Below, in pieces: positions 15,443 through 58,500 of a stretch of DNA of 64,000 nt. How positions within the stretch are numbered: the stretch's first letter is position 1; each line of letters opens with the position of its first letter. Location of the stretch: the NCBI GenBank assembly GCA_016929435.1, contig JAFGIV010000013.1, positions 15,822 through 79,821 of the forward strand. Direction: 5' to 3'. The DNA comes from Candidatus Uhrbacteria bacterium. Its GTDB lineage: Bacteria; Patescibacteriota; Patescibacteriia; SG8-24. A program made the translations under genes and the position numbers. Below the pieces are notes generated by a model that had not been told where the DNA came from, did no database searches, and saw only the letters and a list, made by a program, of their open reading frames with translations.

Positions 15443-15473
15443 AATACCCGATCTGACGATCGGGTATTTTTGT
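15443..15473 (+). terminator. Intrinsic terminator after tRNA-fMet
   Basis: tacccgatc-tgac-gatcgggta followed by a T-tract. Confidence 0.5.
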
Positions 15474-15568
15474 ATGTCGAGACACGGGCGGTGCAACTTT
15501 TTGGAACATCACCTTCACCGCTTTCGACTTGCCAAAAACATCCGAATGCGCTATCTTTCTATTCGTGT

Positions 15569-15950: not shown

Positions 15951-16012
15951 CAGGGTAAAAAGAAAACCCCGCTTTTGGGCGTGGTTTGCCTTGCCTTATC
16001 TTGGTCTCGGTG

Positions 16013-16240
16013 TCAGGCGGCTGCCGTCGCCTTGACGGTTTCCACCTTAATTTCCTTGATTAGGGTGCCGATGTTCCTGTGGAAACATTCGTGGCATACG
16101 GCTAACCGAAGAGGGGCCCCGTTTTCCCATTGGACGGAAATCAGGTAGGCTGTTTCCCCACCCTTAAATTCATGTACGCACCTATGGAGCCGTGATTGAC
16201 AGAAACGTATCTCATCGGCGTTATGTTTCTTTTTCCGCAT
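16013..16240 (-). CDS. Hypothetical small Cys/His-containing protein (75 aa)
   Basis: Intact ORF; C..RLHRC...CHECFH spacing suggests possible metal binding. AT-rich promoter-like DNA upstream. Confidence 0.3.
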   Translation of the reverse strand: MRKKKHNADEIRFCQSRLHRCVHEFKGGETAYLISVQWENGAPLRLAVCHECFHRNIGTLIKEIKVETVKATAAA

Positions 16241-16345
16241 AATTCAGCTAAAAAAACTGTTTATATTTCCTAACGCAATTTTAGATTAGCACAAGACGGC
16301 AGATTAATCAAGGGTTGTCCGCCTGAGCTGAAAAAGGTTGAGGTT

Positions 16346-16879
16346 ATGGCCTTATTTTGGTATGATCCAATTACCGATATGTATATGGTCGTCCATGCCG
16401 CTGTCGGGGCGGCTGCCGGTCAGGCAGTCGAACACGTGTCAGTGGCCTTTGTTTTGGGGGTAGTTTCCCACTTTTTCCTGGACATGATTCCTCATGGGGA
16501 TGAGAACCTGTACCAGGCCTACATCGGGGGCAAGGGCCTGAAAAAGGGCCTGCTTCATGTTGGTTTTGATGTCCTGGCCACCATTGTTTTTTGTACGGCT
16601 ATTTACCTTAACCGGGAAGTTTTTGTCGCGCCGAACGTCGTTTTTTGGGGCGTTGTCGGCGGCCTGATTCCGGATTTTCTCGTGGCCCTTTCCGGCATTT
16701 TTCGGCCACGCCGGAAAAGGGGGTTGGTTTGGAGGCTGGATCGGTATAATGCCTTTCACCGATGGAACCACTCCCTGCTGATGAGGAAATGGCGCTGTTT
16801 CCGGAAGGATGTTCCCTATGTTTTTGGGGCGGCTTACCAGGCGGTCATACTGGTGATTTTGGCGAAGATGATCCTGTAA
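16346..16879 (+). CDS. Membrane protein, possibly DUF457/YdjM-like membrane-bound metal-dependent hydrolase
   Basis: Multi-TM with a conserved HFFLDMIPHGDE motif; weak family assignment. Confidence 0.35.
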   Translation: MALFWYDPITDMYMVVHAAVGAAAGQAVEHVSVAFVLGVVSHFFLDMIPHGDENLYQAYIGGKGLKKGLLHVGFDVLATIVFCTAIYLNREVFVAPNVVFWGVVGGLIPDFLVALSGIFRPRRKRGLVWRLDRYNAFHRWNHSLLMRKWRCFRKDVPYVFGAAYQAVILVILAKMIL

Positions 16880-19277: not shown

Positions 19278-20168
19278 ATGGCCAAAAGACCTTCCGGTCT
19301 CGGTCGCGGACTTGATTCGCTGATTCCGAGCCAAGACAAGACTGCCGCATCCGGCGTTGCCCTGAAGACCGTCCCTGACCGGTCCGGCGACGGATCGGTG
19401 AGGGTGCCGATCTCCGCCGTCATCGCCAATCCGGACCAGCCCCGAGTGGCCTTCAGGCACCATGAGCTGGAGGAGCTGACCGATTCGATTCGGGAACACG
19501 GGATAATCCAGCCCCTGACCGTTACCCCGAACGCTGACGGGACATACGAGCTGATTGCCGGGGAACGCCGCCTTAGGGCCGCCAAGATGGCGGGACTGGA
19601 GTCCGTACCGGTCATGGTCCGGCAGTCCGTCGGCAACCGGGAGAGGCTGATCCTGGCCTTGATCGAGAACATCCAGCGGGAAGACCTGAATCCCGTAGAG
19701 GAGGCGGCGGCATATGACCGGATGTCCAGGGAGTTCGGGATGAAGCAGGAGGATATCGCCAAGAAGGTCGGGAAGGCCCGATCCACGGTCGCCAACACTC
19801 TGCGTCTCCTGGAGCTTCCGTCCGAGATCAGGGAAGCGATTTCCGAGGGGGTGGTGGCGGCCGGGACGGCCCGGGCCATCCTTAGCCTGAAGGACGACGA
19901 AAGCCGGATGGCCTTCTTCCGGAAGATGATGGACAGGGGCGGGGTCATGACCACCCGGCAGGCCGAATCCACGGTCCGACGCTCGTCCGCCGGCAATACC
20001 CGTCGGCGAAAGGATCCGGCCGTGACCGCTGCCGAGGAGCGTATCCGCAACTGTTTGGGCACCAGGATCGACATCAAGAAGAAGGGGAGCAAGGGGTCGA
20101 TCGTCATCGGATTCTATTCGGAGGAGGAGTTCGGGAAGCTGGTGGGGAAACTGGAGGGGTGCAAATAG
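19278..20168 (+). CDS. parB: Chromosome partitioning protein ParB/Spo0J
   Basis: ParB box (GERRLRAAK), HTH region, C-terminal dimerisation region. Confidence 0.9.
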   Translation: MAKRPSGLGRGLDSLIPSQDKTAASGVALKTVPDRSGDGSVRVPISAVIANPDQPRVAFRHHELEELTDSIREHGIIQPLTVTPNADGTYELIAGERRLRAAKMAGLESVPVMVRQSVGNRERLILALIENIQREDLNPVEEAAAYDRMSREFGMKQEDIAKKVGKARSTVANTLRLLELPSEIREAISEGVVAAGTARAILSLKDDESRMAFFRKMMDRGGVMTTRQAESTVRRSSAGNTRRRKDPAVTAAEERIRNCLGTRIDIKKKGSKGSIVIGFYSEEEFGKLVGKLEGCK

Positions 20169-20234
20169 GGGGCCGTCCATTCCCGCAAATTCACGTTCAA
20201 GCAAGAAAAAGCCGGGCAAAACGTCCGGTCTTTT

Positions 20235-21824
20235 CTATCTCCTTCTCTTTCCCCTTGCCGTCGGTTTGGCCGATGGGGACCTGGCGGGGGCAGGTTTGGC
20301 GGACGGGGTGTCCGGACCGGACGGGCCGGGCGGGGCGGTTTCCTTCAGCCATTCGGACAGGCGCGACTTGTTGGCGGAGCGGATGCGGTTCTTGGCGGCG
20401 GTCGTTTTCACGAAGTCCAGCCAATCCGGGTTGGGTGACTTGCGGTTCCGGTCAGTGGTCACCTCACAGCAGTCGCCGGAGGACAGCGGCGTGTCCAGGC
20501 TGACGATCTGGTCGTTGATCCTGGCGCCCACGCATGTGTTCCCCATTTGGGTATGGATGGCATAGGCGAAATCCACCGGAGTCGCCCCTTCAGGCAGGTC
20601 GATGACGTCTCCCTTGGGGGTGAAGACGAAAATGCGACTATGGAAGATGTCGATTTTAGCCCCGATTTTCGGCCCGTCCGTCGAAATCCTCGGCCCGGAT
20701 GGGGCGGATCCGGACAGGTCCCTGACCCAGGAGAGCTGGTCGCTGATCCGGGCGGAAGCCCTCTTCCCGTCCTCGTCATACTGCCAGTGGGCGGCAATGC
20801 CCCGTTCCGCCTCCTCGTGCATTTCCTCGGTCCTGATCTGGAACTCCACCACCTCCCCGTCCTCACAGAATACGGTGGTGTGGAGGGAGCGGTAGCTGTT
20901 CGGTTTCGGGGCGGCGATATAGTCCTTGAACCGTCCCTTCATCGGTTTCCAGGCCTGGTGGATGGCGCCGAGGGCGGCGTAGCAGTCGGCTACCTGCGGG
21001 ACGATTATCCGAAGGGCAATCAGGTCATGGATCCGATCGATGTCCCGATCGTATTTCAGCAGCTTGCGGTAAAGGCTGTAGAGGTGTTTGGTCCGCCCTT
21101 GGACGGAGACAAAGGGGATGTTGGCCTCGTTCAGTCTCTTGCGGAGGAGGTGCTGGATCCGGTTAATGTAACCGGAACGGACCTTAACGGCCGCTTGGGC
21201 CAGTCGGGAGACCCACTCGTATTCCTTCGGCATGGCATGGCGGAAGGCCAGGTCCTCTATCTTGGTCTTGATGTCATACATGCCTAGGCGATTGGCAATC
21301 GGTGAGAATATTTCCAGGGACTCCAGGGCGATCCGGATCCGCTTTTCCGGGGGCAGGGAACCGAGAGTTTCCAGGTTATGCATCCGATCCGCGAACTTCA
21401 CCAGGATTACCCTGATGTCGGAGGCCATTGCCACGAACATCTTCCGGAGGTTTTCCACGTAGCGGTCTATGCCGCGATACTTGATTTTCCCCAGTTTGGT
21501 GATGCCGGCCACCATGGAGGCGATGTCCTCCCCGAAGTCTTTCCGGATGTCATCAACCGTCTTTTCGGTGTCCTCCGGGACGTCGTGGAGCAGTCCGGTC
21601 ACGATGATCGGGACCGGCAGGCGCATTTCCGCCAGGTGTTCCGCTGTCCGCAGGCAATGGGCGATATACGGCTCGCCGGAGGCCCGTTTCTGCCCGGCGT
21701 GGGCCTCCTTGGCGTAATCGAAAGCCAGCCGGATCGTGTCCAGGTCAGCCTTGGGGTTGTTGGCCTTGGCTTTGGCCAGCAGGTTTTGGCATCCCGTTTC
21801 CTCCATATGTCCCGTTATTGGCAT
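20235..21824 (-). CDS. Bifunctional (p)ppGpp synthetase/hydrolase RelA/SpoT homolog, short form
   Basis: HD hydrolase domain (HD...HDVPED), synthetase domain and TGS-like C-terminus. The six-frame ORF extends to 21965; the internal Met at 21824 or 21806 is more plausible. Confidence 0.8.
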   Translation of the reverse strand: MPITGHMEETGCQNLLAKAKANNPKADLDTIRLAFDYAKEAHAGQKRASGEPYIAHCLRTAEHLAEMRLPVPIIVTGLLHDVPEDTEKTVDDIRKDFGEDIASMVAGITKLGKIKYRGIDRYVENLRKMFVAMASDIRVILVKFADRMHNLETLGSLPPEKRIRIALESLEIFSPIANRLGMYDIKTKIEDLAFRHAMPKEYEWVSRLAQAAVKVRSGYINRIQHLLRKRLNEANIPFVSVQGRTKHLYSLYRKLLKYDRDIDRIHDLIALRIIVPQVADCYAALGAIHQAWKPMKGRFKDYIAAPKPNSYRSLHTTVFCEDGEVVEFQIRTEEMHEEAERGIAAHWQYDEDGKRASARISDQLSWVRDLSGSAPSGPRISTDGPKIGAKIDIFHSRIFVFTPKGDVIDLPEGATPVDFAYAIHTQMGNTCVGARINDQIVSLDTPLSSGDCCEVTTDRNRKSPNPDWLDFVKTTAAKNRIRSANKSRLSEWLKETAPPGPSGPDTPSAKPAPARSPSAKPTARGKRRR

Positions 21825-32511: not shown

Positions 32512-32540
32512 GACTGTCCCTTGCCTTAAAAGTTTAAACT
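32512..32540. repeat. REP-like palindrome copy (imperfect)
   Basis: ttaagccggggactgtcccttgccttaaa; overlaps the stop region of the RAYT gene. Confidence 0.55.
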
Positions 32541-33145
32541 CCGTCGAATTTCATCAAATTTGATTCTTCGGAAAAGCTCGTCAGATGACCGATCTCCATC
32601 CTGTGCTCGGTCAATTCCCTATGGGCCCGATGCCGGCTCAACGGATCATCGCCGATTGATAGGTATTGGTCGTCGAAAGTGATGATTCTGTCGTGCGGAG
32701 AAGAGGTGTGCCCACGGTAGCTGGTCCATCGGTATTGTTCCGGCCGTTCGCACAGGCCACTCCTTACGGGATTCAACTCTATGTAAGAAGAACAGGTTGC
32801 GAAGTAGATTTCGTCAGAAATCAGCTTACTTTTGAACCTGTCCTGCCACAGGTGTCCGATCCCGCCGTACTTGTTCCTGTGCCAGATCGAGTATCCCTGT
32901 TCGATCATCTTCATGGCCAAGGAAAGACATCCGGCATTTAGAGAATCGACCAGGAGATGATAGTGATTCGGCATCCAGGCATAATAGAATATCCTGATGC
33001 CTGTTTTTCGTTTGGCCCTAAGGATCAGCTGGCGGAATTTTAGACAGTCTTCATCGTCGTGAAACACAGGTTTTTTGTTGTTGCCTCGGTTATAGACATG
33101 AAATATCCCCACATCACCGATGACACCCCTTGGTTTTCTGGGCAT
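32534..33145 (-). CDS. IS200/IS605-like HuH tyrosine transposase, REP-associated (RAYT-like)
   Basis: HuH motif MPNHYHLLV; C-terminal catalytic Tyr region QYRWTSY; about 200 aa. Flanked on both sides by REP-like palindromes. Confidence 0.7.
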   Translation of the reverse strand: MPRKPRGVIGDVGIFHVYNRGNNKKPVFHDDEDCLKFRQLILRAKRKTGIRIFYYAWMPNHYHLLVDSLNAGCLSLAMKMIEQGYSIWHRNKYGGIGHLWQDRFKSKLISDEIYFATCSSYIELNPVRSGLCERPEQYRWTSYRGHTSSPHDRIITFDDQYLSIGDDPLSRHRAHRELTEHRMEIGHLTSFSEESNLMKFDGV

Positions 33146-33276
33146 AGTGCGATGTTTTTACGCCTTGCCCAGAAATATTGCAAATTCAATTTTTTAGCTT
33201 TGGTTGGCAAAAAGGGTTATACGGTTGATGTTTTGATTGAGCATTTCTCGTATTTGATTGTTGATAACCTGAAAAG

Positions 33277-33306
33277 TTTAAGGCAAGGGACAGTCCCCAG
33301 CTTAAA
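33277..33306. repeat. REP-like palindrome copy
   Basis: tttaaggcaagggacagtccccagcttaaa. Confidence 0.6.
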
Positions 33307-33333
33307 AAATTTATAAACAGGTCGGCTTTTCGC

Positions 33334-33362
33334 TTGACACCAGAACCGATAGCTGGTATTTT
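33334..33362 (+). promoter_or_regulatory. Sigma70-type promoter (TTGACA-17-TATTTT) for the rpsL operon
   Basis: Sequence match; about 130 nt upstream of rpsL. Confidence 0.45.
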
Positions 33363-33489
33363 ACGGCTAACGCGACTGCGATTTTTTTGTTGCGGTCCGC
33401 CTGTCCGTAAATAGCTGCTGCGGCGGGTGCGATGTCGTGGCTGACATCGGGCGCAAACCGTCATTATTAAGATAACCTGAAAATCGGCT

Positions 33490-36967: not shown

Positions 36968-38179
36968 ATGAAAGTCACGACCGACCCAATAAAGACAGAG
37001 GCCCTCCTGACCCGGCGGGTGGAGGAGGTGGTGGTAAGGGAATCCCTGGCCGCCAAGCTCGCTTCCGGCAGGCAGCTGACCGTGAAGATGGGTTTTGACC
37101 CGACTGCCCCGGACATCCATTTGGGGCACAGCATCGGTTTGAGGAAACTGCAGGAGTTCATGGACCTGGGCCACAGGGCGGTGATGATCATCGGGGACTA
37201 TACCACCCTGATCGGGGATCCGTCCGGCAAGTCCAAGACCCGCCCGATGCTGACGCCGGAGGAGATCGAGGCCAACGCCAAGACCTACCTGGAACAGGCC
37301 GGAAAGGTCCTGGATGTCGAAAGGCTGGAGATTCGGCGCAACAGCGAGTGGTTTTCCAGGATGGATTTCCTGGACATCCTGAAGCTGGCCGGAAAGTTCA
37401 CCGTCGCCCGGATGATCGAACGGGAGGATTTCCGCAGTCGGATGGCGTCCGGGACGGACATCGGCCTGCACGAGCTGCTTTACCCGATGATGCAGGCCTA
37501 CGATTCCGTGATGGTCCAGGCCGACGCGGAATTGGGGGGCACGGATCAGCGCTTCAACATCCTGGTCGGCCGGGACCTTCAGAGGAAAATGGGGATGCCG
37601 CAGCAGGATGCGGTGTTCCTGGGGCCGATCCTGGCGGGTACGGACGGTGTCCAGAAGATGTCGAAGTCTCTCGGCAACTACATCGGCGTGTCCGAAGCGC
37701 CGGAGGAGATGTACGGGAAGACGATGTCGATTCCGGACAGCGTCATGTGGGACTGGTTCCTGGCGGTGACCGACGTGCCGGAACAGGAGGTCAGGGAGAT
37801 TCGGGAGGCCTGTGACCGGGGGGAAATGAACCCGCGGGAGGCCAAGGCCCGCCTGGCCCGAGAAATCGTCCTGACCTACCACGGGGAAGCGATAGCCGCC
37901 CGGGCGGAAGAGCATTTCAACCGGACTGTCCGGAATCGGGAGTTGCCGGAGGAGATCGGGGAGTTCGTTGTTCCGGCCGGTAAACACGGCCTGATCGATC
38001 TGCTGTTCGGGTCCGGTTTGGCGCCGTCCAAGACCGAGGCCCGGAGGCTGATCCAGCAGGGCGGGATCAGGATCGACGGAAAGGCCGTCGGGGACATCGA
38101 TACGGTCGTCGAGATCGGCGGTAACCCCGTCATTATCCAGAAGGGCAAGCGGGGATACCGGCGGATAACGGCCGGTTAG
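36968..38179 (+). CDS. tyrS: Tyrosyl-tRNA synthetase with C-terminal S4 domain
   Basis: HIGH-type motif (PDIHLGH), KMSKS, class I Rossmann fold, C-terminal S4-like RNA-binding domain; 403 aa. Confidence 0.85.
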   Translation: MKVTTDPIKTEALLTRRVEEVVVRESLAAKLASGRQLTVKMGFDPTAPDIHLGHSIGLRKLQEFMDLGHRAVMIIGDYTTLIGDPSGKSKTRPMLTPEEIEANAKTYLEQAGKVLDVERLEIRRNSEWFSRMDFLDILKLAGKFTVARMIEREDFRSRMASGTDIGLHELLYPMMQAYDSVMVQADAELGGTDQRFNILVGRDLQRKMGMPQQDAVFLGPILAGTDGVQKMSKSLGNYIGVSEAPEEMYGKTMSIPDSVMWDWFLAVTDVPEQEVREIREACDRGEMNPREAKARLAREIVLTYHGEAIAARAEEHFNRTVRNRELPEEIGEFVVPAGKHGLIDLLFGSGLAPSKTEARRLIQQGGIRIDGKAVGDIDTVVEIGGNPVIIQKGKRGYRRITAG

Positions 38180-38391
38180 CGGACCTGTCAGGGGGTTTTA
38201 TTGCGGATCTCACCAGATCCATGTCGGCTAAATAGCAGGCAGGCGCACGAAGACAGGGGGGAGAATCCCGGTTCACCGGAGAAGGTTGGGCGAAGTTCGC
38301 ATGACACGCAAGCCCGCAGCGCAAAAGGGGCAAATAGTTCGGATAATGACGAGTTAAGTGAAATAATTTTTGGGCTATAACCTTTAAAAAC

Positions 38392-38895
38392 ATGAGTTAC
38401 TACATAATCATTCGAGGCCCGTTAGGAAGCGGTAAATCAACGATATCCGAGAAACTCGCTCAAATTCTTGACGCAAAATACATTGGAATGGACGAGGTGC
38501 TCGAAAAGCATGGCCTTGATAAAATGCCGCCTGACGCACCTTGCATACCAGCGGAAAATTTTATAAAAGCAAATGAAATCGTACTGCCAGAAGTAAAAAA
38601 ATTACTTACAGGCGGCAAGATCGTTATTTTTGATGCCTGCTTTTATCATAAGGAAGTGATCGAGCACCTCGTCCAAAACCTTGAAATGCCGCACTACATT
38701 TTTACGCTTAAAGCACCATTGGAACTCTGCATAAAAAGAGATAGTGAACGAAGCAAAACTCTTGGTGAAGGTGCGGCAGGGGCTGTCCATTCGCTCGTTT
38801 CCCGGTTCGACTACGGCAATATTGTTGATGTTACAGGGGGCCTCGAAGACGCAATAAAAGATATTCTTTCTTTCCTACCGATGCCCAAAAATTAA
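38392..38895 (+). CDS. Chloramphenicol-phosphotransferase-like (CPT family) P-loop kinase
   Basis: Walker A GPLGSGKST at the N-terminus; VIFDACF (Walker B-like); overall block order resembles CPT/AAA_33 small kinases. Lies in a low-GC island. Confidence 0.45.
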   Translation: MSYYIIIRGPLGSGKSTISEKLAQILDAKYIGMDEVLEKHGLDKMPPDAPCIPAENFIKANEIVLPEVKKLLTGGKIVIFDACFYHKEVIEHLVQNLEMPHYIFTLKAPLELCIKRDSERSKTLGEGAAGAVHSLVSRFDYGNIVDVTGGLEDAIKDILSFLPMPKN

Positions 38896-39075
38896 ATTAC
38901 TTAACAGCGTGTATGCGGTTCCGTTCGTCGTCGCACCTTATCTTCACTGCACCCATATTTGTTGGTGATTGCGCTTCGCACTATTATTTCACCCGCAAAC
39001 ATCGCTTATATCTGGCCGTCGGGCGCAATTTCGCTCCGCCCCCCAAAACGATTATAATTTTAAGGGAATGAAATT

Positions 39076-40059
39076 TTGATTTTTATGAATCCAGAAATGT
39101 CCCACGGCATTGAACGACCCGAATCACGGCAGGAGGGTTCGGTCGTTCTTGACGCCCTGTCTTTCGAGTTTTGCGGGGATGATTTGGTGCGTGACTTTTA
39201 CGGTAAAAAATTGCGAGAGATGGAAGATTACACAAAATGGCTGGAGGACAGCAGGGAAAATTTAGAACAGAACAGGGAGAAAATAGCCAAGGCCGTGGAA
39301 GACGGCCTGCTCAATGACCCCGAACCAGAAACAATTTGGAAATTTCAGGCCGATAAGGCGAGGGAGAGTCAGGAGAAGGTGTTGGCGATAAAAAAGGAGA
39401 TAGAAAGTAGAATCAAAGAAATTAGGGACGAAACGGGGAGAAGATTGGGCAAATTTCTCCCCGATTGGTTTCCCGGTGAGGCAAGAATCACCTTCACCAT
39501 GAACGAAAAAGCCGATTTTTGCGTTGAAGGCGAAACCGTAACCGTAGATTTGGGACGACTGTCGTTTGAGCAAAACCCGGTCGAAAAAGTGAAGGAAGGT
39601 CTGGCACACGAAGTTTTTCATCTTTGGATGAAGGAGAAAAACAAGCGGCCTGACCCTGAGCGGAGCGATGAAACTGACGATGACCTAAAAAACCAAATCA
39701 TATCCCGAACCGTCGATGAGGGTCTGGCGGTTTTGGTGAGCGGACAATCCTTGGCGGAGCATCACCAAAAACAGGGACGAGACTATCAAGAGTACATTGC
39801 GGAGTCATTTGAATTCTTCAGGGAATTTTTAGCGCAGGATGACGGAGCGGAGCTGGAAAAAATCAACGAGAAGGAATTCAGGAACATGGGACATTTTTAT
39901 GTGGTCGGCAATGAAATCGCGGCGGCTGTCCTGCGGCAGGACGGCATGGAAAAATTTAGGGGACAAATCGTTGAGGCAAGAGACAACCCGCCCGTGTTTT
40001 TGGGGAGATACAGGAAGATTTGCGGAAAAAACGCAGGTTTGCATAAAATCGATCCATAA
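39076..40059 (+). CDS. Hypothetical protein with HExxH zinc-metallopeptidase-like motif
   Basis: 327 aa, Glu/Lys-rich; GLAHEVFHLWM contains HExxH. Low-GC island. Start could be the internal Met at about 39088. Confidence 0.35.
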   Translation: MIFMNPEMSHGIERPESRQEGSVVLDALSFEFCGDDLVRDFYGKKLREMEDYTKWLEDSRENLEQNREKIAKAVEDGLLNDPEPETIWKFQADKARESQEKVLAIKKEIESRIKEIRDETGRRLGKFLPDWFPGEARITFTMNEKADFCVEGETVTVDLGRLSFEQNPVEKVKEGLAHEVFHLWMKEKNKRPDPERSDETDDDLKNQIISRTVDEGLAVLVSGQSLAEHHQKQGRDYQEYIAESFEFFREFLAQDDGAELEKINEKEFRNMGHFYVVGNEIAAAVLRQDGMEKFRGQIVEARDNPPVFLGRYRKICGKNAGLHKIDP

Positions 40060-40293
40060 AAATAATTTTGCCCGAATGGTGTCCGCTATCGTTCGTTAAT
40101 CTGTCGGCGTTAGCCAATGCGGCATATCCGGTTACGGCTTTCGTCCGAAAGCCTCCATCCATATTTTATTTCGCCCCGCCCGACCGTCGCCCGCGCGGCA
40201 TGCCGGCCCGGTGGCCCCGCCGTCGCCCCGCCGCGATCGCACAAACGCCGCCCCTTATCGGAAATGATTTAGCCGCCTAATCTTACTGACAAT

Positions 40294-40905
40294 ATGGAAA
40301 AAGAAGATTTTACGTCGATTGGAATCTGCTTTTCGTGCGGGGTGCGCAAACGAAACGGTAAGGATGTTCTGGCTTGGGATACGCGAGCCAGGACCGATAG
40401 GGCATTCATCCTATACAAACTTGGATATATCAGCAAAATCCTCTGTACCGGGGGCATATTCCAAAAGGGGCAGCAGGTTCCGATCGCCGAATTAATGAAA
40501 GGTTACCTGACAGGAAAGGGCGTGCCCAAAAACGACATTCTAATCGAGACCAGATCCGTGGAAACCGTAGAGAACATAAAATTTTCCCTCTTATTACTGA
40601 AAAAAAGAAATATTCTCAAAAATCTCAAAAATGCCGAGCAGTTGCGCTTGGTTTTGATTAGCGAACCGAATCATTTGCGCCGTATAGAGATTATCGCCCG
40701 TGCTTATTTGGAAAGACACAAAATAGGCAAATTCGTGCCCTTGCTACTCGATCCGGTCCATTACCATATTTCTGAAAAAACCAGGCACGAAGAGGACGCA
40801 ATGCTGTACCATACGGCCCTTGATCCGCTTGGTGAGGGTGAGATTTTTGAAAAAATTAGACAGGAAAGACGTCAGGCCCTTGGCAAAAGACACGGTTCAC
40901 GTTAA
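40294..40905 (+). CDS. DUF218 (YdcF/SanA/ElyC-like) domain protein
   Basis: ILIETRSVETVENIKFSLLLL matches the DUF218 signature (E..S.nT.EN). Low-GC island. Confidence 0.5.
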   Translation: MEKEDFTSIGICFSCGVRKRNGKDVLAWDTRARTDRAFILYKLGYISKILCTGGIFQKGQQVPIAELMKGYLTGKGVPKNDILIETRSVETVENIKFSLLLLKKRNILKNLKNAEQLRLVLISEPNHLRRIEIIARAYLERHKIGKFVPLLLDPVHYHISEKTRHEEDAMLYHTALDPLGEGEIFEKIRQERRQALGKRHGSR

Positions 40906-40974
40906 CGTGTCGGTGTCTTTGAAAAATGACGTCCGCCGAACGGTGGCGTCCAAAATCCCCCACAGGAGGAAAAA

Positions 40975-41376
40975 ATGACGGTACAATTCAGGAAAACATT
41001 AGATACCCTGCTCTCGTTCAACGAAGGAAGGCCTATAAGGGTTGGAGTTCGGGGATCAAGAGAGTATCTAAACGCAATATTGGGCTATTTTCGAGATAGA
41101 TCATTTATCGTCTCTGAACAGGGATCGGTTCGTGATCTCGGGAATGCCTTTCCCATTCCCGAAAACATACCAGATACAGCCCCCGGATATGTAGTCGTGG
41201 TTGATTCAAGGGGTGCTTGGGACAATCACACGATGAATAAGGGAATCCTAACGGCCAATCTGGGAATCTCTGATGGTCAAAACGCCGTTTTTATCTCATG
41301 GACCTCTGATCTCAACGAAACTTCAGGAGGTGGGGCGGAATGGGACACCTCTTTTCTTGAGGGTATTAACCAGTAG
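40975..41376 (+). CDS. Hypothetical protein (133 aa)
   Basis: Intact ORF at the island edge; no motif recognised. Confidence 0.3.
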   Translation: MTVQFRKTLDTLLSFNEGRPIRVGVRGSREYLNAILGYFRDRSFIVSEQGSVRDLGNAFPIPENIPDTAPGYVVVVDSRGAWDNHTMNKGILTANLGISDGQNAVFISWTSDLNETSGGGAEWDTSFLEGINQ

Positions 41377-41512
41377 CTCCTGCCGCCATCCCCAAAAAAA
41401 TCGCCTTGACCGGGGCGATTTTCTGTTCCCCCCGCCGCCAGGTTCCGGAGGTTCGGATATCCGGCATAATCTGGTATAATACCATTGCAGGATAACTCAA
41501 ATACCATTCGGG

Positions 41513-42583
41513 ATGTCCAATTTCAGTTCAGCGGAATTGACCATAATCGGCGCTTTCGGGGCGGTCTTTCTGGCTTTCCTGACGATTCACCCCTACCGTC
41601 GCCGGCTTTTCGGTTGGCGGATCGCGGCGGTGGAGGCGTTCGCCTTCGCCCTGGTCATGATCAACTTCACGGAAATGGTGATGTCCAGGGACAGCGGGCA
41701 GTTTACGGTCCGGACGGTCCTGTTTACGGTTTCGGCCATCGCCGGAACCCTCCTGGTCCGGAGCGTGGTCGCGGAGATGGAAACCCACCGGAAAGTGAAG
41801 GCCCTGGCGGTTCGGCTGAACAGGATGAACCGCGAGCTGCGCCGGATGGACGAGATGAGGAGCGAATTCGTTTCCGTCGCCTCCCACCAGCTGCGGACCC
41901 CGGTTTCGGTCATCAGGGGATACCTTTCCCTCATCAAGGACGGGGCGTTCGGGAAGCTGGAGGGGGACCTGCAGGACAAGATGGAGCAGATATACGACAT
42001 AAACGAACGGCTGGTCCTTTTGATCAACAACCTGCTCAACGTCTCCCGGATAGAGAAGGACGCCGCCCAGTTCTGGTGTTCGGAGGTGAACCTTCCGGAG
42101 ATCATCCGCCGGACGGTGGACAGCATGGGGTTTCGGATCCGCGGAAAGGGGCTGACGCTTGATTTCGTTGATCCGGAAGCCGGAGTGCCCAATGTCTTCG
42201 CCGACCCGGAACGTCTGACCGAGGTGATCGTCAACCTGATCGATAACGCCGTAAAGTACACCTATTCCGGTTCCGTGACGGTGAGCGTTTCGGAGGGGGA
42301 GGACGGGTCGTCGGTCATCGTCCGGGTGAAGGACACCGGCATCGGCATGGACCCGCAGGACATGCACCACGTGTTCCAGAAATACTACCGTCCCCACCGC
42401 CCGACCGACGAGCACCAATCCGGACTGAATCTGGGTTTGGGGCTGTATGTCTGCGCCCGCTTCCTGGAAAGCATGGGCGGGAAGATTTGGGTGGAGTCGA
42501 CGGAACCGGGGAAGGGGACCACCGTCGCTTTTTCCCTGCCGGTCCGTCCGGGCGGGGTCTGCGTCCCCACGGAGGGAAAGTGA
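41513..42583 (+). CDS. Sensor histidine kinase (orphan, no adjacent response regulator)
   Basis: N-terminal TM segments; H-box FVSVASHQLRTPVSVIRGY; HATPase_c N/G boxes (NLIDNAVKYT, DTGIGM, GLGLYVC). Confidence 0.85.
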   Translation: MSNFSSAELTIIGAFGAVFLAFLTIHPYRRRLFGWRIAAVEAFAFALVMINFTEMVMSRDSGQFTVRTVLFTVSAIAGTLLVRSVVAEMETHRKVKALAVRLNRMNRELRRMDEMRSEFVSVASHQLRTPVSVIRGYLSLIKDGAFGKLEGDLQDKMEQIYDINERLVLLINNLLNVSRIEKDAAQFWCSEVNLPEIIRRTVDSMGFRIRGKGLTLDFVDPEAGVPNVFADPERLTEVIVNLIDNAVKYTYSGSVTVSVSEGEDGSSVIVRVKDTGIGMDPQDMHHVFQKYYRPHRPTDEHQSGLNLGLGLYVCARFLESMGGKIWVESTEPGKGTTVAFSLPVRPGGVCVPTEGK

Positions 42584-49567: not shown

Positions 49568-52500
49568 ATGGTCAGACAAGCCCTTTCCGCAAGAAAAACG
49601 CTGGCCGCCATCCTGGCATTGGGTTTGGGGGCGGTTTTGGCCGTTCCCGCCCTGGCCCAAGTCGATGTCGGCCTGGAATCGGCGGCCGCCATTGGCCTTA
49701 CCACCACTGACATTCGAACGATCGTTTCCCAGGTAATCAACGTTTTCCTGGGTCTTTTGGGTATTGTGGCGGTTGCGCTGATAGTTTACGGCGGATACGT
49801 CTACATGATGGCCAAGGGGGACCAGAACGAGGTTCAGCGCGCCAAGAAGATATTGGTGAACGCCCTCATCGGGCTGATCATAATTTTGGCCTCATACGCC
49901 ATCGCCTCATTCGTGCTGCGGGCGATTTCCGGAGGCAGCGGCGGAGAGGTGGGGGAGGGGGATTGCCCTCCGGGGGCCACCTGCAGCTCCTCCTTCCCGT
50001 CCCCGGGCAACTCCCTCCTGCTGAACGGGGTCATTCCGAGCGGCAGCGGCCCGAACGGGATGGGTTGGACCAGGGATAGCCTGCCCAGGATCGTCTTTAA
50101 CCGCAAAATCGACGCAACCACCCTGGATGACAGCCGCATCAGGGTTACCCGCTGCAACAGCCGGATGGACGGGGAGACGATCGCCGATTTCAGGAACAGC
50201 GCCTGCAATACTGCGGTATCCGGGGAAGTCAGCCTGGTAAACGAGACCACTGCCGTGTTCCGACCGGTCGGACTGGAGAATGAGGGTCTTTTTGACGGTG
50301 ACTACTGGTATCGGCTGGAGCTTCGGGGGATCCCCCTGCCGATCAGGAGCCTGGACGGGAAGGACCTGGCATGCCTGACGGCCCTGCCGGGAGACGGGGA
50401 TTACGATTCCTACGTTCAGAACCTGCCGTCTAATTCCCGGGTCTGCATTAGGGCCATTGCCTACAACACCCTAATTGATACCGGACCGCCCACCGTAGCC
50501 ATCAGTTGGCCCAGGGACGGGCAGTCGATCTGTGCCGATACGACCGAGGCTTCGGCCGTGGCCAGGGACGATGTCCTGGTTTCGGGGATCCGGTTCTCTC
50601 TTTCCGATCCGGCCTCGCCGTCCGACCCGCTTTCCCTGGCCTTCCCGTCGAACCCCTTGGACATCCCCAATTCCGGGCAGGTGACCGGTCCGTTTACCGC
50701 CTCCGCCACGATTTTCGGCAGTCACCTCAACGTTGGACAGGAATACAGGTTTTCGGCCGTGGCTTCCGACCTCCGTTTCCCGAACCCCGAAGGGGAGACT
50801 GTTGGGGTTGATTTCAGCGTCAGGCCCCAGCACTGCTGCGACGGCCAGCTGAACGACGACGAGAGCGGGGTGGACTGTGGCCCTGATTCCGGCTGCGGGT
50901 CGTGCCCGGGGGACGGGTGCACGGAAAACGGCGACTGTTCGTCCGGTTTTTGCGAGGAAGGCGTCTGCGTTTCCCTGCCGCGAATAGTCTCCGTTGACCC
51001 GATTGATCCCAATACGCAAGTTTTTGGCGGCGGTCCGGGGACCCTGGTTACCCTGAACGGCGAGTACTTCGGCGGGGCGGTCGGGGTCGTGGAGTTCTAT
51101 GACGGTACGCATGCCCTGACCGCCGAACCGTGCCTTCCGGGAGCCTGGACCAACGGCCAGGTGACCGTTAGGGTTCCTGAGGGGGTGAAGGTGGGAGGGC
51201 GGTATTTCGTCCGACTGACCAGGTCCGACAGCCGACACACCAGCACGGAAGCCGGACAGGAGGATGCCTACGGCTGGCTGGGGTATTTTCAGGAGAACGG
51301 GAATAACACCCCGGGCATCTGCCTGATCAGGCCGGCCAGCGGCAGCGAGGGCGACGTTTTTGAGGTTGTCGGTGACGGTTTCGGTGACGGTTCGGTGGGT
51401 GACCTGACGGTTAGTTTCGGGATATCCAACCCTTTCACGGTGGTGCCGGATTCCCGGACAGCGTCTTCCCTGACGGCCAAGGTCCCGCGGGCCCCGGAGG
51501 GCACCTATCCGGTTCGGGTTTCCGGATCCGGATGGATGACCACAAACGACCCGAAGTTCGCCGTCCTTCTGCCCTCCGAAAGCATGCAGCCGAAGATCGA
51601 GGGGATTTCGCCGAACGCCGGCCCGGTCGGAAATTACGTTACGATCAGCGGTAAGGGGTTCGGCAGCCAGCGCGGGCGGGTGGTGTTCCTGTTCGGGGAC
51701 GGACTGAACGAGGAACGGGCCATTGGGGCGGATACGGTCTGCGAAGACAGCTGGAAGGACTCCTACGTTACGGTCAAGGTACCGAAACAGTACGAGTGCC
51801 AGGAAGGAAGCGCCTGTCCCCTGCAGTTGGGCACGCACCGGATCCGGGTGGAGACGGCCAAGGGGCTGAAGAGCAACACCGTTAACTTCACGGTCAACAC
51901 CGATCCCCTGACCCCGAACATCTGTTCCATCAAGCCGGATAACGGCCCGCCCGGCACGGTCGTGACGGTGGGCGGGGAAAACCTTGGATCCGGTCCGGCC
52001 GCCGCCGCTCCCCTGAACGCCGTCGGATACGAGTGCCAGGACCCGAACCAGACCGGATGCGACATCAACGGCGTCGCCATGTCCTCGGAGGTCTCCTCCT
52101 GGCAGGTGAAGGCCCTGAAGTCAATCGTTCCGGGCAACAGGCTTAGCGTTGCCACCTGGCCGGACAGCGGCGATGTCCATGTCTGGTCCTACAATGTCCG
52201 CAGCGGAAACGGCCTGCCGTTCCTGGTCCAGGACTGCAACGACGGCGGGGACCGGGCCTGCCCCGCGGGTTTCGTGTGCTGCCAATCCGGTATCTGCGAT
52301 GACGGTTCGTCCAGCCCGACCGGCCGTCCCTGCGACTTCAGCCGCACCAGCGAGTTCGCCTGGCGTTTGAGCACGGAGATGATGCCCGTACCCCCCCAGC
52401 TTCTGACCTGTCCGTCATGCGGGGCGGTCGCCTGTCCCCTGACCGACGGCCTGCAGAGCCCCTCCCCGTTTCCGGGGTCGCGGGATGCCTGCGTCAACGC

Positions 52501-55500
52501 CAACATTGAGGCGGTGATCAGCCAGCGGCTGGAGGTTCCGTCCGGTGTCTCCGCGGCGGTTTCCGTTCTGTCCTGCGGTTCCGGGGAATCGCCGGATTCC
52601 TGTGTCGATGTGACAGGTGAAATGTCCCTGACGGTTTCGGCGGTCGGGGCGGGAGGGGGAAGCGGCCTGGTCAGCATCCGGCCGTCCGGCGGGGATTTCC
52701 TCCTGCCGGATACCTGGTACAGGGTCACTCTCAAATCCGACGGGCTTAGGGAAAACCTGACCGGGAACCGTACGGCCTTTGACGGCGACAGGGACGGCCT
52801 GCCGGGCGGCGATTATGTTTGGGAGTTCCGGACCAAGGATTCCCCCTGTGCCCTTGCGTCGGTAAGCGTAACGCCGAGCGAATACAACATTGACCACTGG
52901 AAGGGACAGCCGTCCCCGGACGACAGCGGTTTCAGGGCCGGCCTTCAGGCCGCCAACTGCAACAGCATCACCTGTGATCCCCTGAGCTATTCCATCGGGT
53001 GGTCGGTATCCGATCCCATGACGATATCCAAGGTGACGACGGCCAAGGCCTGTCACCAGAAGGTAGAGGCCCTGAAGGAAACCCTAATCGGGGAATTGGT
53101 CGACCTTTCGGCCAATGTCCGGCCTGTAGGGGAAACCCTGAGCCGGACCGGGAAGGCGGGGATTACGGCCCGGTTCGCCGATCCGGAGGTAGCGGGATTT
53201 GAGCCTGATTGCGATGAGGCCTGCGTCAACGCCGCCATCGGCATGACGTTCAGCACGCCGATGGAACCGAATTCCGTAATCGCCGGCAATACCGTCCTTC
53301 TCAAGACCTGCCGAAACCAAAGCTGCAACGAGCCTTTCGAGACGGCCGGGGCGGTCGGTCTGGTCGGCATCGAAAGCTATGCTGGCACTGATTCCGACGG
53401 CTATGTCGGATTCAGCCTTGATACCGACTCTGACCTGGCGCCGAACACTTTCTACCTGGTGATGGTGAAGGGCGGAGGGAACGGCGTGATGAGCAAGAGC
53501 GGCAAGACCCTGGTCGGCACCAACCTTACCGATTCCTCCGGAACCCCCTGGTTTACCTGGCGTTTCCGGACCAAGGACAGCAACCTGCCCTGCCAGCCGA
53601 GTCGGGCGGAAATAGTACCAAGGAACGCCGAGTTCAGGTATGTCGGACAGAAACTGCCGCTTTTCGTCCGCACCTACGGTTCCCCCGATTCCTGCAGCGC
53701 CGAAGGGCAGGCCCTGAACGCCGGCGATTACGGCTGGAGTTGGGGAAAGACGGCCAATGGCGTAGTCAGCCGGTTCCTGACCTCTGGGTCGGCCACTGTC
53801 CTGGATACCAATCCGGCCGTCCCGATCGGGTGCTCCTCCAGTTGCCTTAAGGTCGGTTCCCAGACGGCCCGGCCCCAATGCGGCAACGGGAAGGTCGAAT
53901 TAGGGGAGGATTGTGACGGAGGCAGCGGCTGCTCCCCCACCTGCCTGAACACCGGTTCCCCGACCTGCGGCAACGGTGTCCTTGATCCTGGGGAGGATTG
54001 CGAGTCGGTCGGCGGGATATTCCCTCCCGGGTGCTCCGACTGCCTCAATGCCGGATCGGCCCAGGGGAACTCGACCTGCGGCGACGGGTACGTTGGGGAC
54101 GGCGAGGATTGCGACGGGACCAGCGGCTGTGACCCCGTGTCCTGCCTAAATTTGGGGACCTTGCCCAGGTGCGAGGCCGTTACCGCACCCAAACCGGGCG
54201 TTAACTGCATAAACTATTGCGGAAACGGGATTTTGGAATACGGGGAGGAGTGTGAGGCTGCAGGCGGCACCTTTCCCCCGGGTTGCGACAGGAAAACCTG
54301 CCTGTGGGCCGGGACACCCAAGTGTTCCGATCCTGAAGGCGCCAAATGCTGCGGCAACGGGATTACGGACAGCGGGGAGGATCCGGGTTGCGAGTTCGGG
54401 TTCGGCCAATCGGCCGAATGGTGCGACGACCGGTGCCTGAACCGCGGATCCTCATACCTTTACGATTCGCCCAGCTTCTGCGGAGACATGGTTTTGGGCA
54501 GCGGGGAGGAATTGGGGTGTGAGGTGGCCTCCACAGGCCAGCCCGGACCGGCCGATCCTTTCCAGGTGATACTCGGGGGCAAGCCCCTGGCCACGGCCAT
54601 TGACCCGGCCACCGGATCGGCGACCGACACGGTAACATCCCGGACCGGGGGGATTTCGGCATCCAACCAGGGTGAAGCCACCGTCAGCCTTACCTGCCGC
54701 TGCCGGGAGGAGGACGATCCGCACGGTTTCTGTGAGTCGGTGGGGGAAGGTTTGGGGTGCGACGACATCGGCTGCTGCTCGCCGGCTCCCGGCGTGGCCG
54801 GCTCTACGCCGGCGGACGGCTCCTCCAACATCTGCCGCAATGCCCTTGTCAGCGTTGTTTTCGATGCGGCCATCAGTCCAGACTCGGTCAACGGCAGCAG
54901 TTTCCGGGTCGTGCGGGACGCTGGTTTTGGCACGCCGGCCTGCCGGTTCTGCAGTAACGATCCGGACAGGGCCTGCCTGTCCGATGGGGATTGCGGTTCG
55001 GGCGGTACCTGCCAGGACGGGACGGTGGAGAACGGCGGGAAGATACTGGCCGCTGTCGGCACGGGGGAACCGTCCGAAGACGGCGGGTTATGGGATCGGT
55101 TCGTCCGGTTCGTCCGCCGGCTGTTTTTCCGGTCAGCGTCAGCCCAGACTGTACAGACCTTCTGTCGGGTTCCCGGCCAGGTCAGCCTGACCGGACAGGA
55201 CACCGTTACCTTTACCCCGTTCGGCGTAATGTCCGGAACGGTAGGCCACCACATCCTTTTGACCGGCGGCAGCGACGGAATTCGCTCGTCCATGGGCGTG
55301 CCCATGAAGGCGGACCGGAGGATATCGTTCGTCACCTCGGACAGCGTCTGCGAAATAGGATCGATCCGGATCGATCCGGAATCGGTCCTGATCCAGGGCA
55401 TTGAGGGGGAAAACTCCTCCTTTGTCCTGACGGCCCATGCCCAGGCGGCCGGCCAGCCGGTCGGGACGGAAATCGTTTCCACGCCGGCCTATCGGTTCGA

Positions 55501-58500
55501 CTGGAACTGGAACCTGCCGGTCGTCACCTCTCCGGTGGCGCTGACGGTATCCGACTTTTTTCCTGACGGCCAGGGCCACAGTCCGGTATCCGAAGTCAGG
55601 GCCAGGACAGGAGCGGGATTCCCGAAGGAGGGGAGGGAAACCGTAACGGTCCGGACCGACATATACGGTTCGGGGACATCGGTCACCAAAACCATGACTG
55701 CCTCTTCCGATGCGACGGTCATGCTCTGTGAGCACCCGTGGCCGGATTGGCATGTCTGCAGTTCGGCCAATGACGTCTATTATCCCTATCCGGGGCACGC
55801 CGTCGACTGTTCCAGGGCCGGCCAGCAGATGTGGTATCCGTTCATAGACGGAAGCACCCTAACCTCCTTCTATTACTGTCGTGACGGTGCCACGGCCGGC
55901 GATTCCGGACAGTTGCTGCCGGCATTGAGCGGCGTTAAGATCGGCAGTAACCGGGCCGACATCCTCCACGAATACCTGTTCACCTTTCCGGGTTCGGCGG
56001 GGGAAAACTGGGTTAGGGACGCCATCGGACTGCGGGTTTCCAAGAACATGGAGCATTTCGGCATTTCCGACTGGTATTCCCGGCAGGGTTTCGTCGGTTC
56101 CCCGCAGCCGGTAACGATGGACGGCTATGAGGGCCTGAAGGAGGGACGGAGCGTTTACGTAAATGCCGCCGCCAAGACCGCCGTTTCCCCGAACCTGTAC
56201 ACCAATGTGTATACCCTGTCCCACAGTGACGGGGCTTCCCCGGAGACGGTCGGCATTTTCAGCCAGATCCTCGGAAACATGGACATGAACTGGCGGGTCC
56301 TGACCGACAGCCGCTATTGCGTGATTGACGACAGGCAGGTCCTGGTTGACGGGCAACCGGTATATTGCGAGAAGGACCGGGACTGTCGGGTTACGGCCGG
56401 TGACGACGGCCGGGAATCGTTCCCATCCGAAAGGTCCGTTTGGACCTGTCAGGCCGACAGGAGCAAGGTCCGACGCGATGTCCTGCGCTGGTCAGACATC
56501 CATACCATCCGTCTGGCCCTGAACCGGGCCCGGTCGGTAGGCGGATACCCGTCCCTGGATTCCGGGACCTACCTGCGCGGCTGGACCACCAGTGCCTGGC
56601 CGTCCTGGAACGAGGTCTTGGCGAACCAGATCGGTTTGGGGTCGCTTCCGGCCGATCCGGCGGAGGGTTTCATGGACTGCGGAACCGGCGGTTCGGGGCA
56701 CGATTCAGTGACCTGCTGGGATCCGGCTGTCAGGACCTACCGGTGTCCGTCCGGATCGCAGACATATACGTATAGGGGTTTGGGCGGGCTGAACTATGTC
56801 CTGGAGGCGATGTTCGAGTATGCGGACGGAAACTGGGCCAGCGGCACTGCCTGTTTGGGCAAGGGCGAGCCTGCCTGCCGGGCAAACGACCGTTGCGAAT
56901 GGCTTTCCTCCGACGGCTCCCCTTCGGAATGCCAATACCGGGGCGGCGGTCGGATAAGGGTCAGGGGTATCGGTAACGTTGAAACCACGTGCTCATCCGG
57001 GGTTACCGTTGGCATCGGCTCGGTTTGCGGTGACGGCCTGGTCGGGGAAGGGGAGGAATGCGAGCCGGGAGTGTCGTCCCCGCGCCAGATTCCCTGCGCG
57101 GCGGATTCGCGGAGCGGTTTCCGCCATCAGGCCTGCAATGACCAGTGCCGGTGGCAGGACTCCAGCGGCTGCATTACCGGTTCCTGCGGCGACGGCATTG
57201 TCCAGACGGAAGCGGGCGAGGCCTGCGATGACGGGCCCCTGAACGGGCAATACGGCCGATGCGGCAATGACTGCACCTATTCTGCCTCCCGATGCGGCGA
57301 CGGCGTCCGTCAGGCCAACGAGGCCTGCGATTGTGCACCCGGCGGGTTGCCGAACGGCACCTATGCCCTGAACGGCGTCCTGGCATCGTCCGGACAGCGG
57401 TGCGGAAACTCCGGACACGCCGTTCCGGGGTGTGCCTGGGACTGTTCCGGTCCCGGACCGCGCTGCGGTGACCTGGTGGTGAACGGCAGCGAGCAGTGCG
57501 ACGGCGGGACGGAGGAATATCCCAGGCTGTGCATCGGAAAGAACAACGGCAACCCGAAACGGCCGGTCATGACCGGCAACACCTACAGTCCGGTTCCCGG
57601 AAACGCCTACACCGGGTGTCGGACAGATGCCGATTGCCCGAGTGACCAGGTTTGCGCCGCCCTATGCGATCCTGACAGGCCGGAGCGGGTCTGGCGCAGG
57701 AACTGCCAGAGCAACGACCCGTTCGATTGGTTCGATAACGATGACGGCAGGGCCTGCACCTGGACCGTTTGGCAGTGCGGCTCGGCAGGTTTCTGCGGCA
57801 ACGGGGTCTTGGAAACGGGGGAGGAATGCGATGACGGCAATGACGACAATATGGACTCCTGCATCATCGACCCGAACGGCACCGGAACCTTCGGGACGCC
57901 GGTGATGTGCCGGAAAGCCGCCTGCGGCGACGGCTACGTCAGCCCGTCCAACAACGAGGAGTGCGATGCCGGCAGCCAAAACGGCCAGTCCTGCATTGCG
58001 GAATACGGCAAGACCTGCTCGTTCTGTTCGACGGGATGCAAGTTGGCCTACGTTTCCGGCGGGTTCTGCGGGGACAGCGTCATCCAGAACCGTTCCTTTG
58101 TCCCTCCGGGGCCGGAGGAATGCGAAGGGAGCCTGGAGCTGGAGAACTGGGTCTGCGTCAGCGACCGCCCGGAACACCAGATGTTCGGAAAGATGACCGG
58201 TTTGGCCATATGTGACCACGAAAGGGGGTGTGTCCGGGGGTGTTCCGATTCCGGGTCGGTCCCGTGCCTGGAGACCGGGAACCCGCTTGCCGGATCGGAT
58301 TACGACGGGGAGGCCGGATGGGACAAGCCGAACGATGCCCTTTTGGCGGCCATCGGTTACGGTTATGACCTGGGACAGACGGTTTTGGCTGACGGGCCGT
58401 GCGATCCGGACTGGGATAACGACGGCGTGCCCAACGGTTCGGACTGCCGCCCGACGGTCAGTGAGGTGCATCCCGCATACCAGGTGGTGGCCTCGGACGG

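Follow-up and report, generated by a model that had tools for sequence, protein, structure and literature searches.

Background

Integrons capture promoterless gene cassettes; a cassette consists of one gene and its recombination site, attC. Recombination between attC and the attI site is carried out by a tyrosine recombinase, which cuts the GTTRRRY core after the G and before the TT. In a survey of integrons no complete copy was found in very small genomes (Cury et al. 2016, PMC4889954), and for classical integrons it has been shown experimentally that cassettes can enter secondary sites in trans (bioRxiv 10.1101/2022.09.11.507474). Integrons have also been described in archaea, including DPANN (Nanoarchaeota), mostly as arrays without an integrase in metagenome-assembled genomes (MAGs), and long-distance exchange of cassettes was proposed (Ghaly et al. 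2022, PMC9668308). In literature searches of incomplete coverage, no paper on integrons in bacteria of the Candidate Phyla Radiation (CPR) was found. In this work we analyzed a low-GC island of four genes that lies between tyrS and a histidine kinase gene in a 64-kb stretch of DNA from Candidatus Uhrbacteria, a CPR bacterium; the whole stretch is referred to as the window, and coordinates are those of the window unless another locus is named. We conclude that the island is, in all likelihood, the remnant of an integron cassette array that has decayed in the chromosome of this bacterium.

Results

Composition and gene content of the island

The mean GC content of the window is 59.5%; the segment from 38200 to 41450 shows a value of 0.475, against 0.601 for the remainder, and is the lowest-GC segment of 3.25 kb in the window, about 4 standard deviations under the mean. 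The fall in GC begins at about 38300 and the recovery is found at about 41450-41600. The GC content at third codon positions (GC3) is about 0.41-0.55 in the genes of the island, in contrast with 0.75-0.84 in tyrS, fusA and most of the flanking genes. The four genes of the island are closely spaced, lie on the same strand and have intact open reading frames (ORFs):

36968-38179, + strand, tyrS, left flank of the island
38392-38895, + strand, P-loop kinase gene, 167 aa, AAA_33 (Pfam), intact
39085-40059, + strand, DUF5700 gene, 324 aa, start at ATG 39085 (Pfam PF18958)
40294-40905, + strand, DUF218 gene, 203 aa (Pfam), intact
40975-41376, + strand, orphan gene, 133 aa, low GC, no family match
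41394-41424, + strand, terminator-like hairpin AAAAAAATCGCC-TTGACCGG-GGCGATTTTCT, read directly from the sequence, which closes the island
41513-42583, HisKA/HATPase_c kinase gene, right flank of the island

An earlier note, made from the sequence alone, had described an island of low GC and AT-rich codons with four co-directional genes, and this description agrees with the sliding GC, the GC3 values and the families named by Pfam.

Arrays of small genes separated by attC-like repeats in CPR relatives

Homologues of the kinase gene were found in loci L082 (Peregrinibacteria; its extended version is L101), L083 and L084, where they belong to long co-directional runs of small genes separated by 100-400 nt. 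The genes around the kinase homologues include HicA/HicB, Fic, restriction-modification and SMODS/SLATT genes, and many of no known family. In L082/L101 there are at least 16 such genes, each parted from the next by a conserved repeat of 120-170 nt that ends in YAAC at its 5' side and in GGAC/GTTRRRY at its 3' side. In the fold predicted from an alignment of 12 sites of L082, an L stem of 10 bp is accompanied by a small hairpin at the side and by another long stem, and compensatory changes occur in 22 of the 29 predicted pairs. For 37 distinct sites from 8 loci, 91% of the cells are paired, versus 67% in shuffles and 32-43% with slid partners, and double changes occur in 30 of 36 pairs; the outer R-box positions are often unpaired across these 37 sites, which is to be expected since these bases, within an array, are part of the cassette that follows. 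The 5' end of each cassette, counted from the GTT core, shows complementarity to the R'' region of that cassette but not to the R'' regions of its neighbours (mean local score 14.9 vs 7.1-7.3, P 1e-10); this self-only complementarity is a signature of cassettes that move singly, as circles, and are joined by a crossover between G and TT. To judge from these patterns of pairing and covariation, the repeat between the genes of L082 can be identified as an attC site. R1, a covariance model built for this repeat from one array, gave no match at E <=0.1 in 1.1 Mb of control loci.

Two of these relatives carry a recombinase gene ahead of the array:

L101, 1043-1864, - strand, tyrosine recombinase, 273 aa, on the opposite strand and 2 kb upstream of the first cassette region
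L091, 129-947, - strand, recombinase, with the same layout as in L101

For the L091 recombinase the best NCBIfam model is TIGR02249, 'integron integrase', with 231 bits and thus short of the cut-off of 265; the protein passes NF040815, 'XerA / integron integrase' (226.8 bits vs a cut-off of 220). The recombinases of the intact CPR arrays have 272-273 aa, and the L091 copy, XerA-like and short of the integron-integrase cut-off, seems not to have the IntI-specific insertion. By their layout and recombinase genes, L082/L101 and L091 appear to be integron-type elements with a short recombinase.

Some features of these arrays were observed in addition. In the DUF5700 cassette of L091 (5219-6397) a 5' leader of about 70 nt that includes the ATG pairs with the 3' trailer that includes the stop codon, and complementarity of the cassette termini beyond the 7-bp core is also present in the window (39079-39091 with 40051-40063, and 38353-38375 with 38883-38905). 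In L082 one attC (12234-13134; L101 coordinates are higher by 2000) is split by a pair of Fic genes into R''/L'' and L'/R' halves, and two other split attC sites (14859-15477 and 15834-16421) enclose DUF7387- and HicA-like genes and a UPF0150/HicA pair. The far end of the L101 array is separated by two genes (Mem_trans and a 185-aa ORF) from tyrS (19940-20504, - strand); the array of the window also abuts tyrS, in the other orientation, and this adjacency may be a coincidence or a preferred neighbourhood.

The island contains cassettes with mutated attC sites

Comparison with these loci allowed us to place the following elements in the island:

38296-38353, + strand, attI-like remnant (tentative), with TTCG boxes TTCGCATGACA at 38296 and TTCGGATAATG at 38338, about 40 nt apart
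38354-39018, + strand, cassette 1 (kinase), which starts with the TT of the upstream core and stops at the G of the cassette's own core, a mutated one
38898-39025, + strand, attC of cassette 1, with R'' ACTTAAC at 38899-38905 and R' GTCGGGC at 39018-39024 instead of GTTRRRY
39019-40254, + strand, cassette 2 (DUF5700), 5' boundary blurred; 39019-39056 holds the GC-rich CGCTCCGCCCCCC
40105-40261, + strand, broken attC of cassette 2, placed by aligning it to intact attC sites located 3' of DUF5700 homologues
40171-40254, GC-rich patch, 84.5% GC, with a direct repeat spaced by 36 nt (CCCGACCGTCGCCCGC / CCCCGCCGTCGCCCCG)
40255-40974, + strand, cassette 3 (DUF218), with a firm 5' end TTATCGGAAATGATTTAGCC; its 3' end is not definable

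The DNA of cassette 1 is 86.4% identical over 664 nt to positions 7962-8614 of L082, and the identity runs from GTTAAGT (38353) through the gene into the attC, up to 39015. Three bases past the stop codon of the kinase gene, the R1 model finds a full-length match (57.7 bits, E 2.4e-12) that is the sole significant one in the window and has the architecture of an attC, i.e. R'' (RYYYAAC), L'', L' and R' (GTTRRRY) with the conserved fold, except that the R' box has the mutated sequence listed above. The decay of this site comprises the GTC core and two or more broken L-box pairs. The 5' end of the cassette (GTTAAGTGAAATAATTTTTGGGC) is complementary to its own 3' end (GCCCAAAAATTAAATTACTTAAC) at 20 of 23 positions, and so obeys the rule of the family. 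That the 23-nt inverted repeat around the kinase gene forms the ends of a small transposable element was also considered and was rejected, given that the repeat is the normal complementarity between the 5' end of a cassette and its own attC.

The 58 nt that precede cassette 1 stop at the crossover G of GTTAAGT (38353). The last 19 nt before the crossover coincide at 16 positions with the recombinase-proximal junction of L091 (TTCGGATAATGACGA/GTTA vs TTCGTATAATAACCA/GTTA), and in L101 a two-box layout with matching spacing was found. In shuffle tests the similarity reached P values of ~0.006-0.008, and L091 compared with L101 alone was not significant. The similarity makes an attI remnant ahead of cassette 1 plausible.

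For cassette 2, the DNA is similar to the DUF5700 cassettes of L087 and L091-L094 from 39056/39081 to 40174, and this similarity takes in the 3' trailer as well as the attC in its 5' half. In the broken attC, R'' is AGCCAAT (40112-40118, AAC to AAT) and the 5' arm is kept; the short apical loop has been swapped for the GC-rich patch, L' is truncated and R' is CTTATCG (40254-40260, GTT to CTT). The R1 model scores only 5.1 bits here, and the site is recognised by alignment with its intact homologues alone. The earlier note had pointed to a GC-rich patch at about 40175-40245, which is real and somewhat longer; it lies inside the broken attC, is lacking in the homologous attC sites, and folds no better than shuffled sequence (z +1.7). 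The DUF5700 homologues have 39-62% protein identity and are located in similar arrays, and the few with names are CPR MAGs. Each of them has an R1-type attC 3' of the gene, with varying neighbours, and one identical protein (P0008) is found beside different genes on several contigs.

The 5' end of cassette 3, from 40255, matches that of the DUF218 cassettes of L095 and L096, which are there directly 3' of an R1-type attC and are followed by another one 3' of each gene. The DUF218 protein (PF02698, 68.1 bits vs a cut-off of 27.6) is 76% identical to that of L095 and 66% identical to that of L096. 3' of the DUF218 gene of the window only a possible R'' (CGTTAAC, 40900-40906) remains; the rest of the attC is gone and the usual trailer is shorter by about 22 nt. 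The three cassettes thus recur in different arrays with boundaries between G and TT: the kinase in L082, DUF5700 in the loci named above, and DUF218 in L095 and L096. When the L091 recombinase was used as the sole tblastn query, no tyrosine recombinase was detected in the 64-kb window.

The orphan gene of 133 aa had no match in Pfam, NCBIfam, PADLOC or PHROGs, and an exhaustive search of 1.8 billion proteins returned 5 representatives. Its homologues have ordinary neighbourhoods in which the genes are tightly packed and no R1 attC site is present. The closest of them (L097, 8001-8414) has a GC3 of 0.24 in a locus of 50% GC, directly 3' of thrS, and looks foreign there too.

Composition and proposed relative age of the cassettes

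The kinase gene has a GC3 of 0.41, against 0.39-0.40 in its relatives, and its lineage-specific changes show no excess towards GC (10 vs 6). The GC3 of DUF5700 (0.55), DUF218 (0.50) and the orphan (0.44) is above the 0.21-0.29 of their own relatives. Hundreds of proteins are related to the kinase; of these, 119 were listed besides the identical copy, with 60-92% identity, and carry the labels Peregrinibacteria (92%), Gracilibacteria, Parcubacteria, Abawacabacteria and, in one case, a Nanoarchaeota archaeon (67%). This conservation is far above that of the TyrS of the host (<=63%). The horizontal acquisition suggested in the earlier note is upheld both by the foreign composition and codon usage and by the kinase, which is 86% (DNA) and 92% (protein) identical to a Peregrinibacteria copy while TyrS does not exceed 63%. 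The Nanoarchaeota and Parcubacteria homologues have no adjoining R1-type attC, hence they give no evidence for cassette transfer there and no transfer across domains is shown.

Predicted functions of the encoded proteins

The earlier note had compared the kinase with the chloramphenicol phosphotransferases (CPT), a likeness that proved not to be specific: the protein passes AAA_33 (PF13671, 48.6 bits vs a cut-off of 27) and does not reach the cut-off of CPT (PF07931, 21.2 bits vs 22, E 2.7e-4). The AlphaFold model (pLDDT 91) has as Foldseek neighbours in the PDB gluconokinase, Fap7, APS kinase, dTMP kinase, polynucleotide kinase and PSTK, with 12-24% identity, and no CPT structure is present among the top 50 matches. 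Likewise, no NCBIfam model reached its cut-off (Gar/GrdA, 18 bits vs 170). The model and the profiles indicate a putative small P-loop kinase of a generic kind, with no specific likeness to CPT. The comparison with the L082 copy gives a dN/dS ratio of 0.13, which points to purifying selection on the kinase gene.

The DUF5700 protein (64.5 bits vs a cut-off of 25) has the motif HEVFH, in agreement with the HExxH protein of the earlier note; its length of 327 aa has to be corrected, since the start is probably ATG 39085 (MNPE..., 324 aa, as in the homologues) and not TTG 39076. Among 40 homologues there is no or almost no variation in the H, E, H and E columns, the last Glu being 33 residues past the second His. 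The fold matches of the AlphaFold model (pLDDT 89.5) are weak and all of them are M1 zinc peptidases (E >=0.03, TM 0.3-0.4), which is consistent with a putative gluzincin-type metallopeptidase. The sequence searches of the PDB with three island proteins were uninformative, and PADLOC gave for the island proteins P-loop-level matches alone (E 1e-4 or weaker, 31 residues).

Assembly support and synteny

The arrangement of tyrS, island and histidine kinase gene is also present on a 6.3-kb contig of the Logan assembly of run SRR13394437, and a 100% identical kinase and an identical 133-aa protein are recorded on a 93.7-kb NCBI contig of Candidatus Uhrbacteria bacterium. The best matches of TyrS (55-63% identity) are from Uhrbacteria and other Patescibacteria MAGs, with no species representative above 63%. 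In the closest tyrS relatives the order is tyrS-argS-(variable)-histidine kinase-bactofilin-DAGK; the histidine kinase, bactofilin and DAGK-like genes are also found 3' of the island, and argS is absent from the window. None of the 80 tyrS loci compared carries any island gene. As to the earlier question of conservation, the comparison shows only that the interval between tyrS and the histidine kinase gene is variable among them, and at 55-63% TyrS identity they are too distant to date the insertion.

Edges of the island and other features of the window

The two edges of the island (38337 and 41451) carry the 9-mer GTTCGGATA in direct orientation, and a further copy is at 36385, which makes 3 copies in the window versus 0.6 expected. 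GC-rich CGCCCCGCC-like runs mark three junctions, within the island or at its edge (39031, 40171-40234 and 41427); over the whole window the motif TCGCCCCGCCGC shows no enrichment (13 copies vs 22 expected), and 5 of the 13 are at island junctions. A consensus scan for promoters and terminators gave counts not above those of shuffled sequence, and the hairpin at 41394-41424 was not among its output. The Rfam and tRNA scans detected nothing within the island, and the nearest tRNA is a tRNA-Val at 44104.

Elsewhere in the window, an IS200-like Y1 transposase domain (E 1e-11) was identified in a 203-aa ORF at 32534-33145 (- strand), at the margin of another patch of low GC (33000-33450, GC ~0.42-0.44). 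A DUF559 (Vsr-like endonuclease) gene at 8391-8879 (+ strand) has a GC of 0.52, under that of its surroundings, and a single ORF of 3250 aa with host-like composition occupies 49568-59320 (+ strand).

Discussion

The evidence presented here indicates that the island is, with high probability, a decayed integron cassette array, and the following course of events is proposed. At least three cassettes (kinase, DUF5700 and DUF218), drawn one at a time from a pool common to CPR lineages, would have been placed head to tail behind tyrS; the 133-aa gene could be a fourth cassette or a later addition. New cassettes would enter at the front of the array, the first one being better preserved, and less adapted in composition, than the others; we propose this order because the kinase keeps a donor-like GC3 and a recognisable attC, while cassettes 2 and 3 have a shifted GC3 and broken attC sites. 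Given the lack of an integrase in the window and the mutated attC cores, the cassettes are probably no longer excisable and would have become fixed chromosomal genes. Their expression would most likely depend on read-through from tyrS or on a promoter in the attI region, and would end at the hairpin mentioned above. The four proteins are best seen as putative, functionally independent accessory genes.

Several points weigh against this interpretation. The model recognises a single attC in the window; for the second and the third, recognition depends on alignment with intact homologues, and no evidence was found for the 133-aa gene as a cassette. The model itself comes from a single array and is partly a sequence model. 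The similarity to attI is weak (P ~0.007), and the intermediate GC3 of cassettes 2-4 could stem from donors of intermediate GC and not from their age. The donor recombinases are short and the scanned L091 copy is under the cut-off for integron integrases, so that the donors may or may not be canonical integrons. In addition, the closest relatives available for the comparison are distant (TyrS <=63%).

A somewhat unlikely alternative is that the cassettes were never part of a resident integron and that they were inserted in trans at a secondary site (attG-type), singly or as a circle with several cassettes, and decayed afterwards. It differs from a resident array in the origin alone, since the nature of the DNA is the same. 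Neither an integrase nor an integrase pseudogene was seen in the window, the 9-mer is present at both edges of the island, and it is known that integrases can place cassettes outside att sites, from which many small arrays without an integrase may arise (bioRxiv 10.1101/2022.09.11.507474; PMC4889954). A resident integron accounts better for the sequence that precedes the cassettes, which resembles the recombinase-proximal attI regions of L091 and L101 with two boxes equally spaced, and for the gradient in decay and composition, which fits serial capture at a fixed entry site.

The proposal of the earlier note, a single horizontally acquired operon for small-molecule modification or resistance in which a CPT-like kinase acts with a peptidase and a DUF218 protein, is very unlikely and as a unit is largely refuted. 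The genes are indeed co-directional, close and intact, the kinase has a weak similarity to CPT (E 2.7e-4), and integron cassettes often encode detoxification functions (PMC10661359); nevertheless, none of the 23 loci with a homologue of one island gene holds a second one, the identical DUF5700 protein occurs in several neighbourhoods, the genes are parted by attC sites or their remnants, CPT is below the cut-off and missing from the top 50 fold matches, and no NCBIfam resistance model was reached. An artefact of assembly or binning, by which a low-GC fragment of another CPR organism was misjoined into a high-GC contig, could explain the abrupt change in composition and the fact that the closest DNA relatives come from genomes of 31-42% GC. 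It is highly improbable in view of the Logan contig from SRR13394437 that spans both junctions (tyrS-island and island-histidine kinase gene), of the identical kinase and 133-aa proteins recorded on the 93.7-kb contig, and of the divergence of the island from every relative found (<=86% DNA identity); the changes towards GC and the GC-rich insert in the attC sites also suggest residence in this host. Finally, the kinase homologues located beside restriction-modification, SMODS/SLATT and HicAB genes could suggest an insertion derived from a phage, a plasmid or a defence island, but these neighbours are themselves cassettes in arrays, no PADLOC match was significant, the sole PHROG match is a generic kinase, and no integrase, tRNA target or typical flanking repeat was found; we consider this origin the most improbable of all.

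If the array is what it seems, the mechanistic explanation replaces the resistance operon, and the four genes would have been captured independently and should be studied singly. The island would be evidence for integron-type gene capture in CPR bacteria, with cassettes exchanged between CPR phyla. The kinase, given its conservation and the purifying selection on its gene, is a good candidate for a function relevant to episymbiotic lifestyles, and the cassette-borne family to which it belongs extends to DPANN archaea. Moreover, the intact relatives provide a testable system with a recombinase, an attI and many attC sites, and the R1 covariance model can be used to chart the cassette pool. A wider idea, which we put forward tentatively and hold to be possible though open to considerable doubt, is that CPR bacteria carry their own lineage of integrons, of which the island would be a fossil. 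Besides the recombinases of ~272 aa, XerA-like and without the IntI-specific insertion, this lineage may be characterized by a three-way junction in attC sites of 90-200 nt, complementary arms that are cassette-specific and can extend to the start and stop codons, an occasional gene nested in an attC site, and arrays of at least 16 cassettes in genomes of ~1 Mb. Such a lineage would move genes between CPR phyla, as from Peregrinibacteria to Uhrbacteria (86% DNA identity). These elements may merit description as an integron variant, a proposal that rests on few loci.

Among the systems described, the island is closest to the CALIN (groups of clustered attC sites without an integron integrase; PMC4889954), although it falls short of their formal definition. 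As in CALIN, the cassettes are promoterless and co-directional, the attC sites have R''/L''/L'/R' boxes with AAC...GTT cores, there is no integrase nearby, and the contents are accessory genes or genes without an assigned function and not antibiotic resistance genes. The differences are that the island has one attC recognised by a model, whereas the definition needs two (within ~4 kb), that its cores are mutated (GTC, CTT), that a possible attI is present, and that the host is a CPR bacterium. The intact array of L101 resembles the sedentary chromosomal integrons, e.g. the superintegron of Vibrio, in its divergent recombinase gene, in its at least 16 cassettes with similar attC sites, in the HicA/HicB-like toxin-antitoxin and Fic cassettes, and in a 5' end complementary to the own attC of the cassette. 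It departs from them in the XerA-like CPR recombinase of 272-273 aa, the three-way junction of the attC, the complementarity that goes 20-70 nt past the 7-bp core, and the genes located inside some attC sites; the copy in the window, in turn, has no recombinase. With the archaeal integrons (PMC9668308) the island shares the presence of integron elements outside the classical Proteobacteria, but the host is bacterial (CPR) and the Nanoarchaeota homologue of the kinase (67% protein identity) has no adjoining R1-type attC. With regard to the first gene of the array, the kinase shares with CPT and other small P-loop kinases (gluconokinase, APS kinase, PSTK) the fold of ~170 aa, the Walker A motif GxxGxGKS/T, the Asp after strand 2 and the Arg-rich lid, and it differs from CPT (PF07931) in being under the family cut-off and in having as best structural neighbours gluconokinases, Fap7 and APS kinase, with 15-24% identity.

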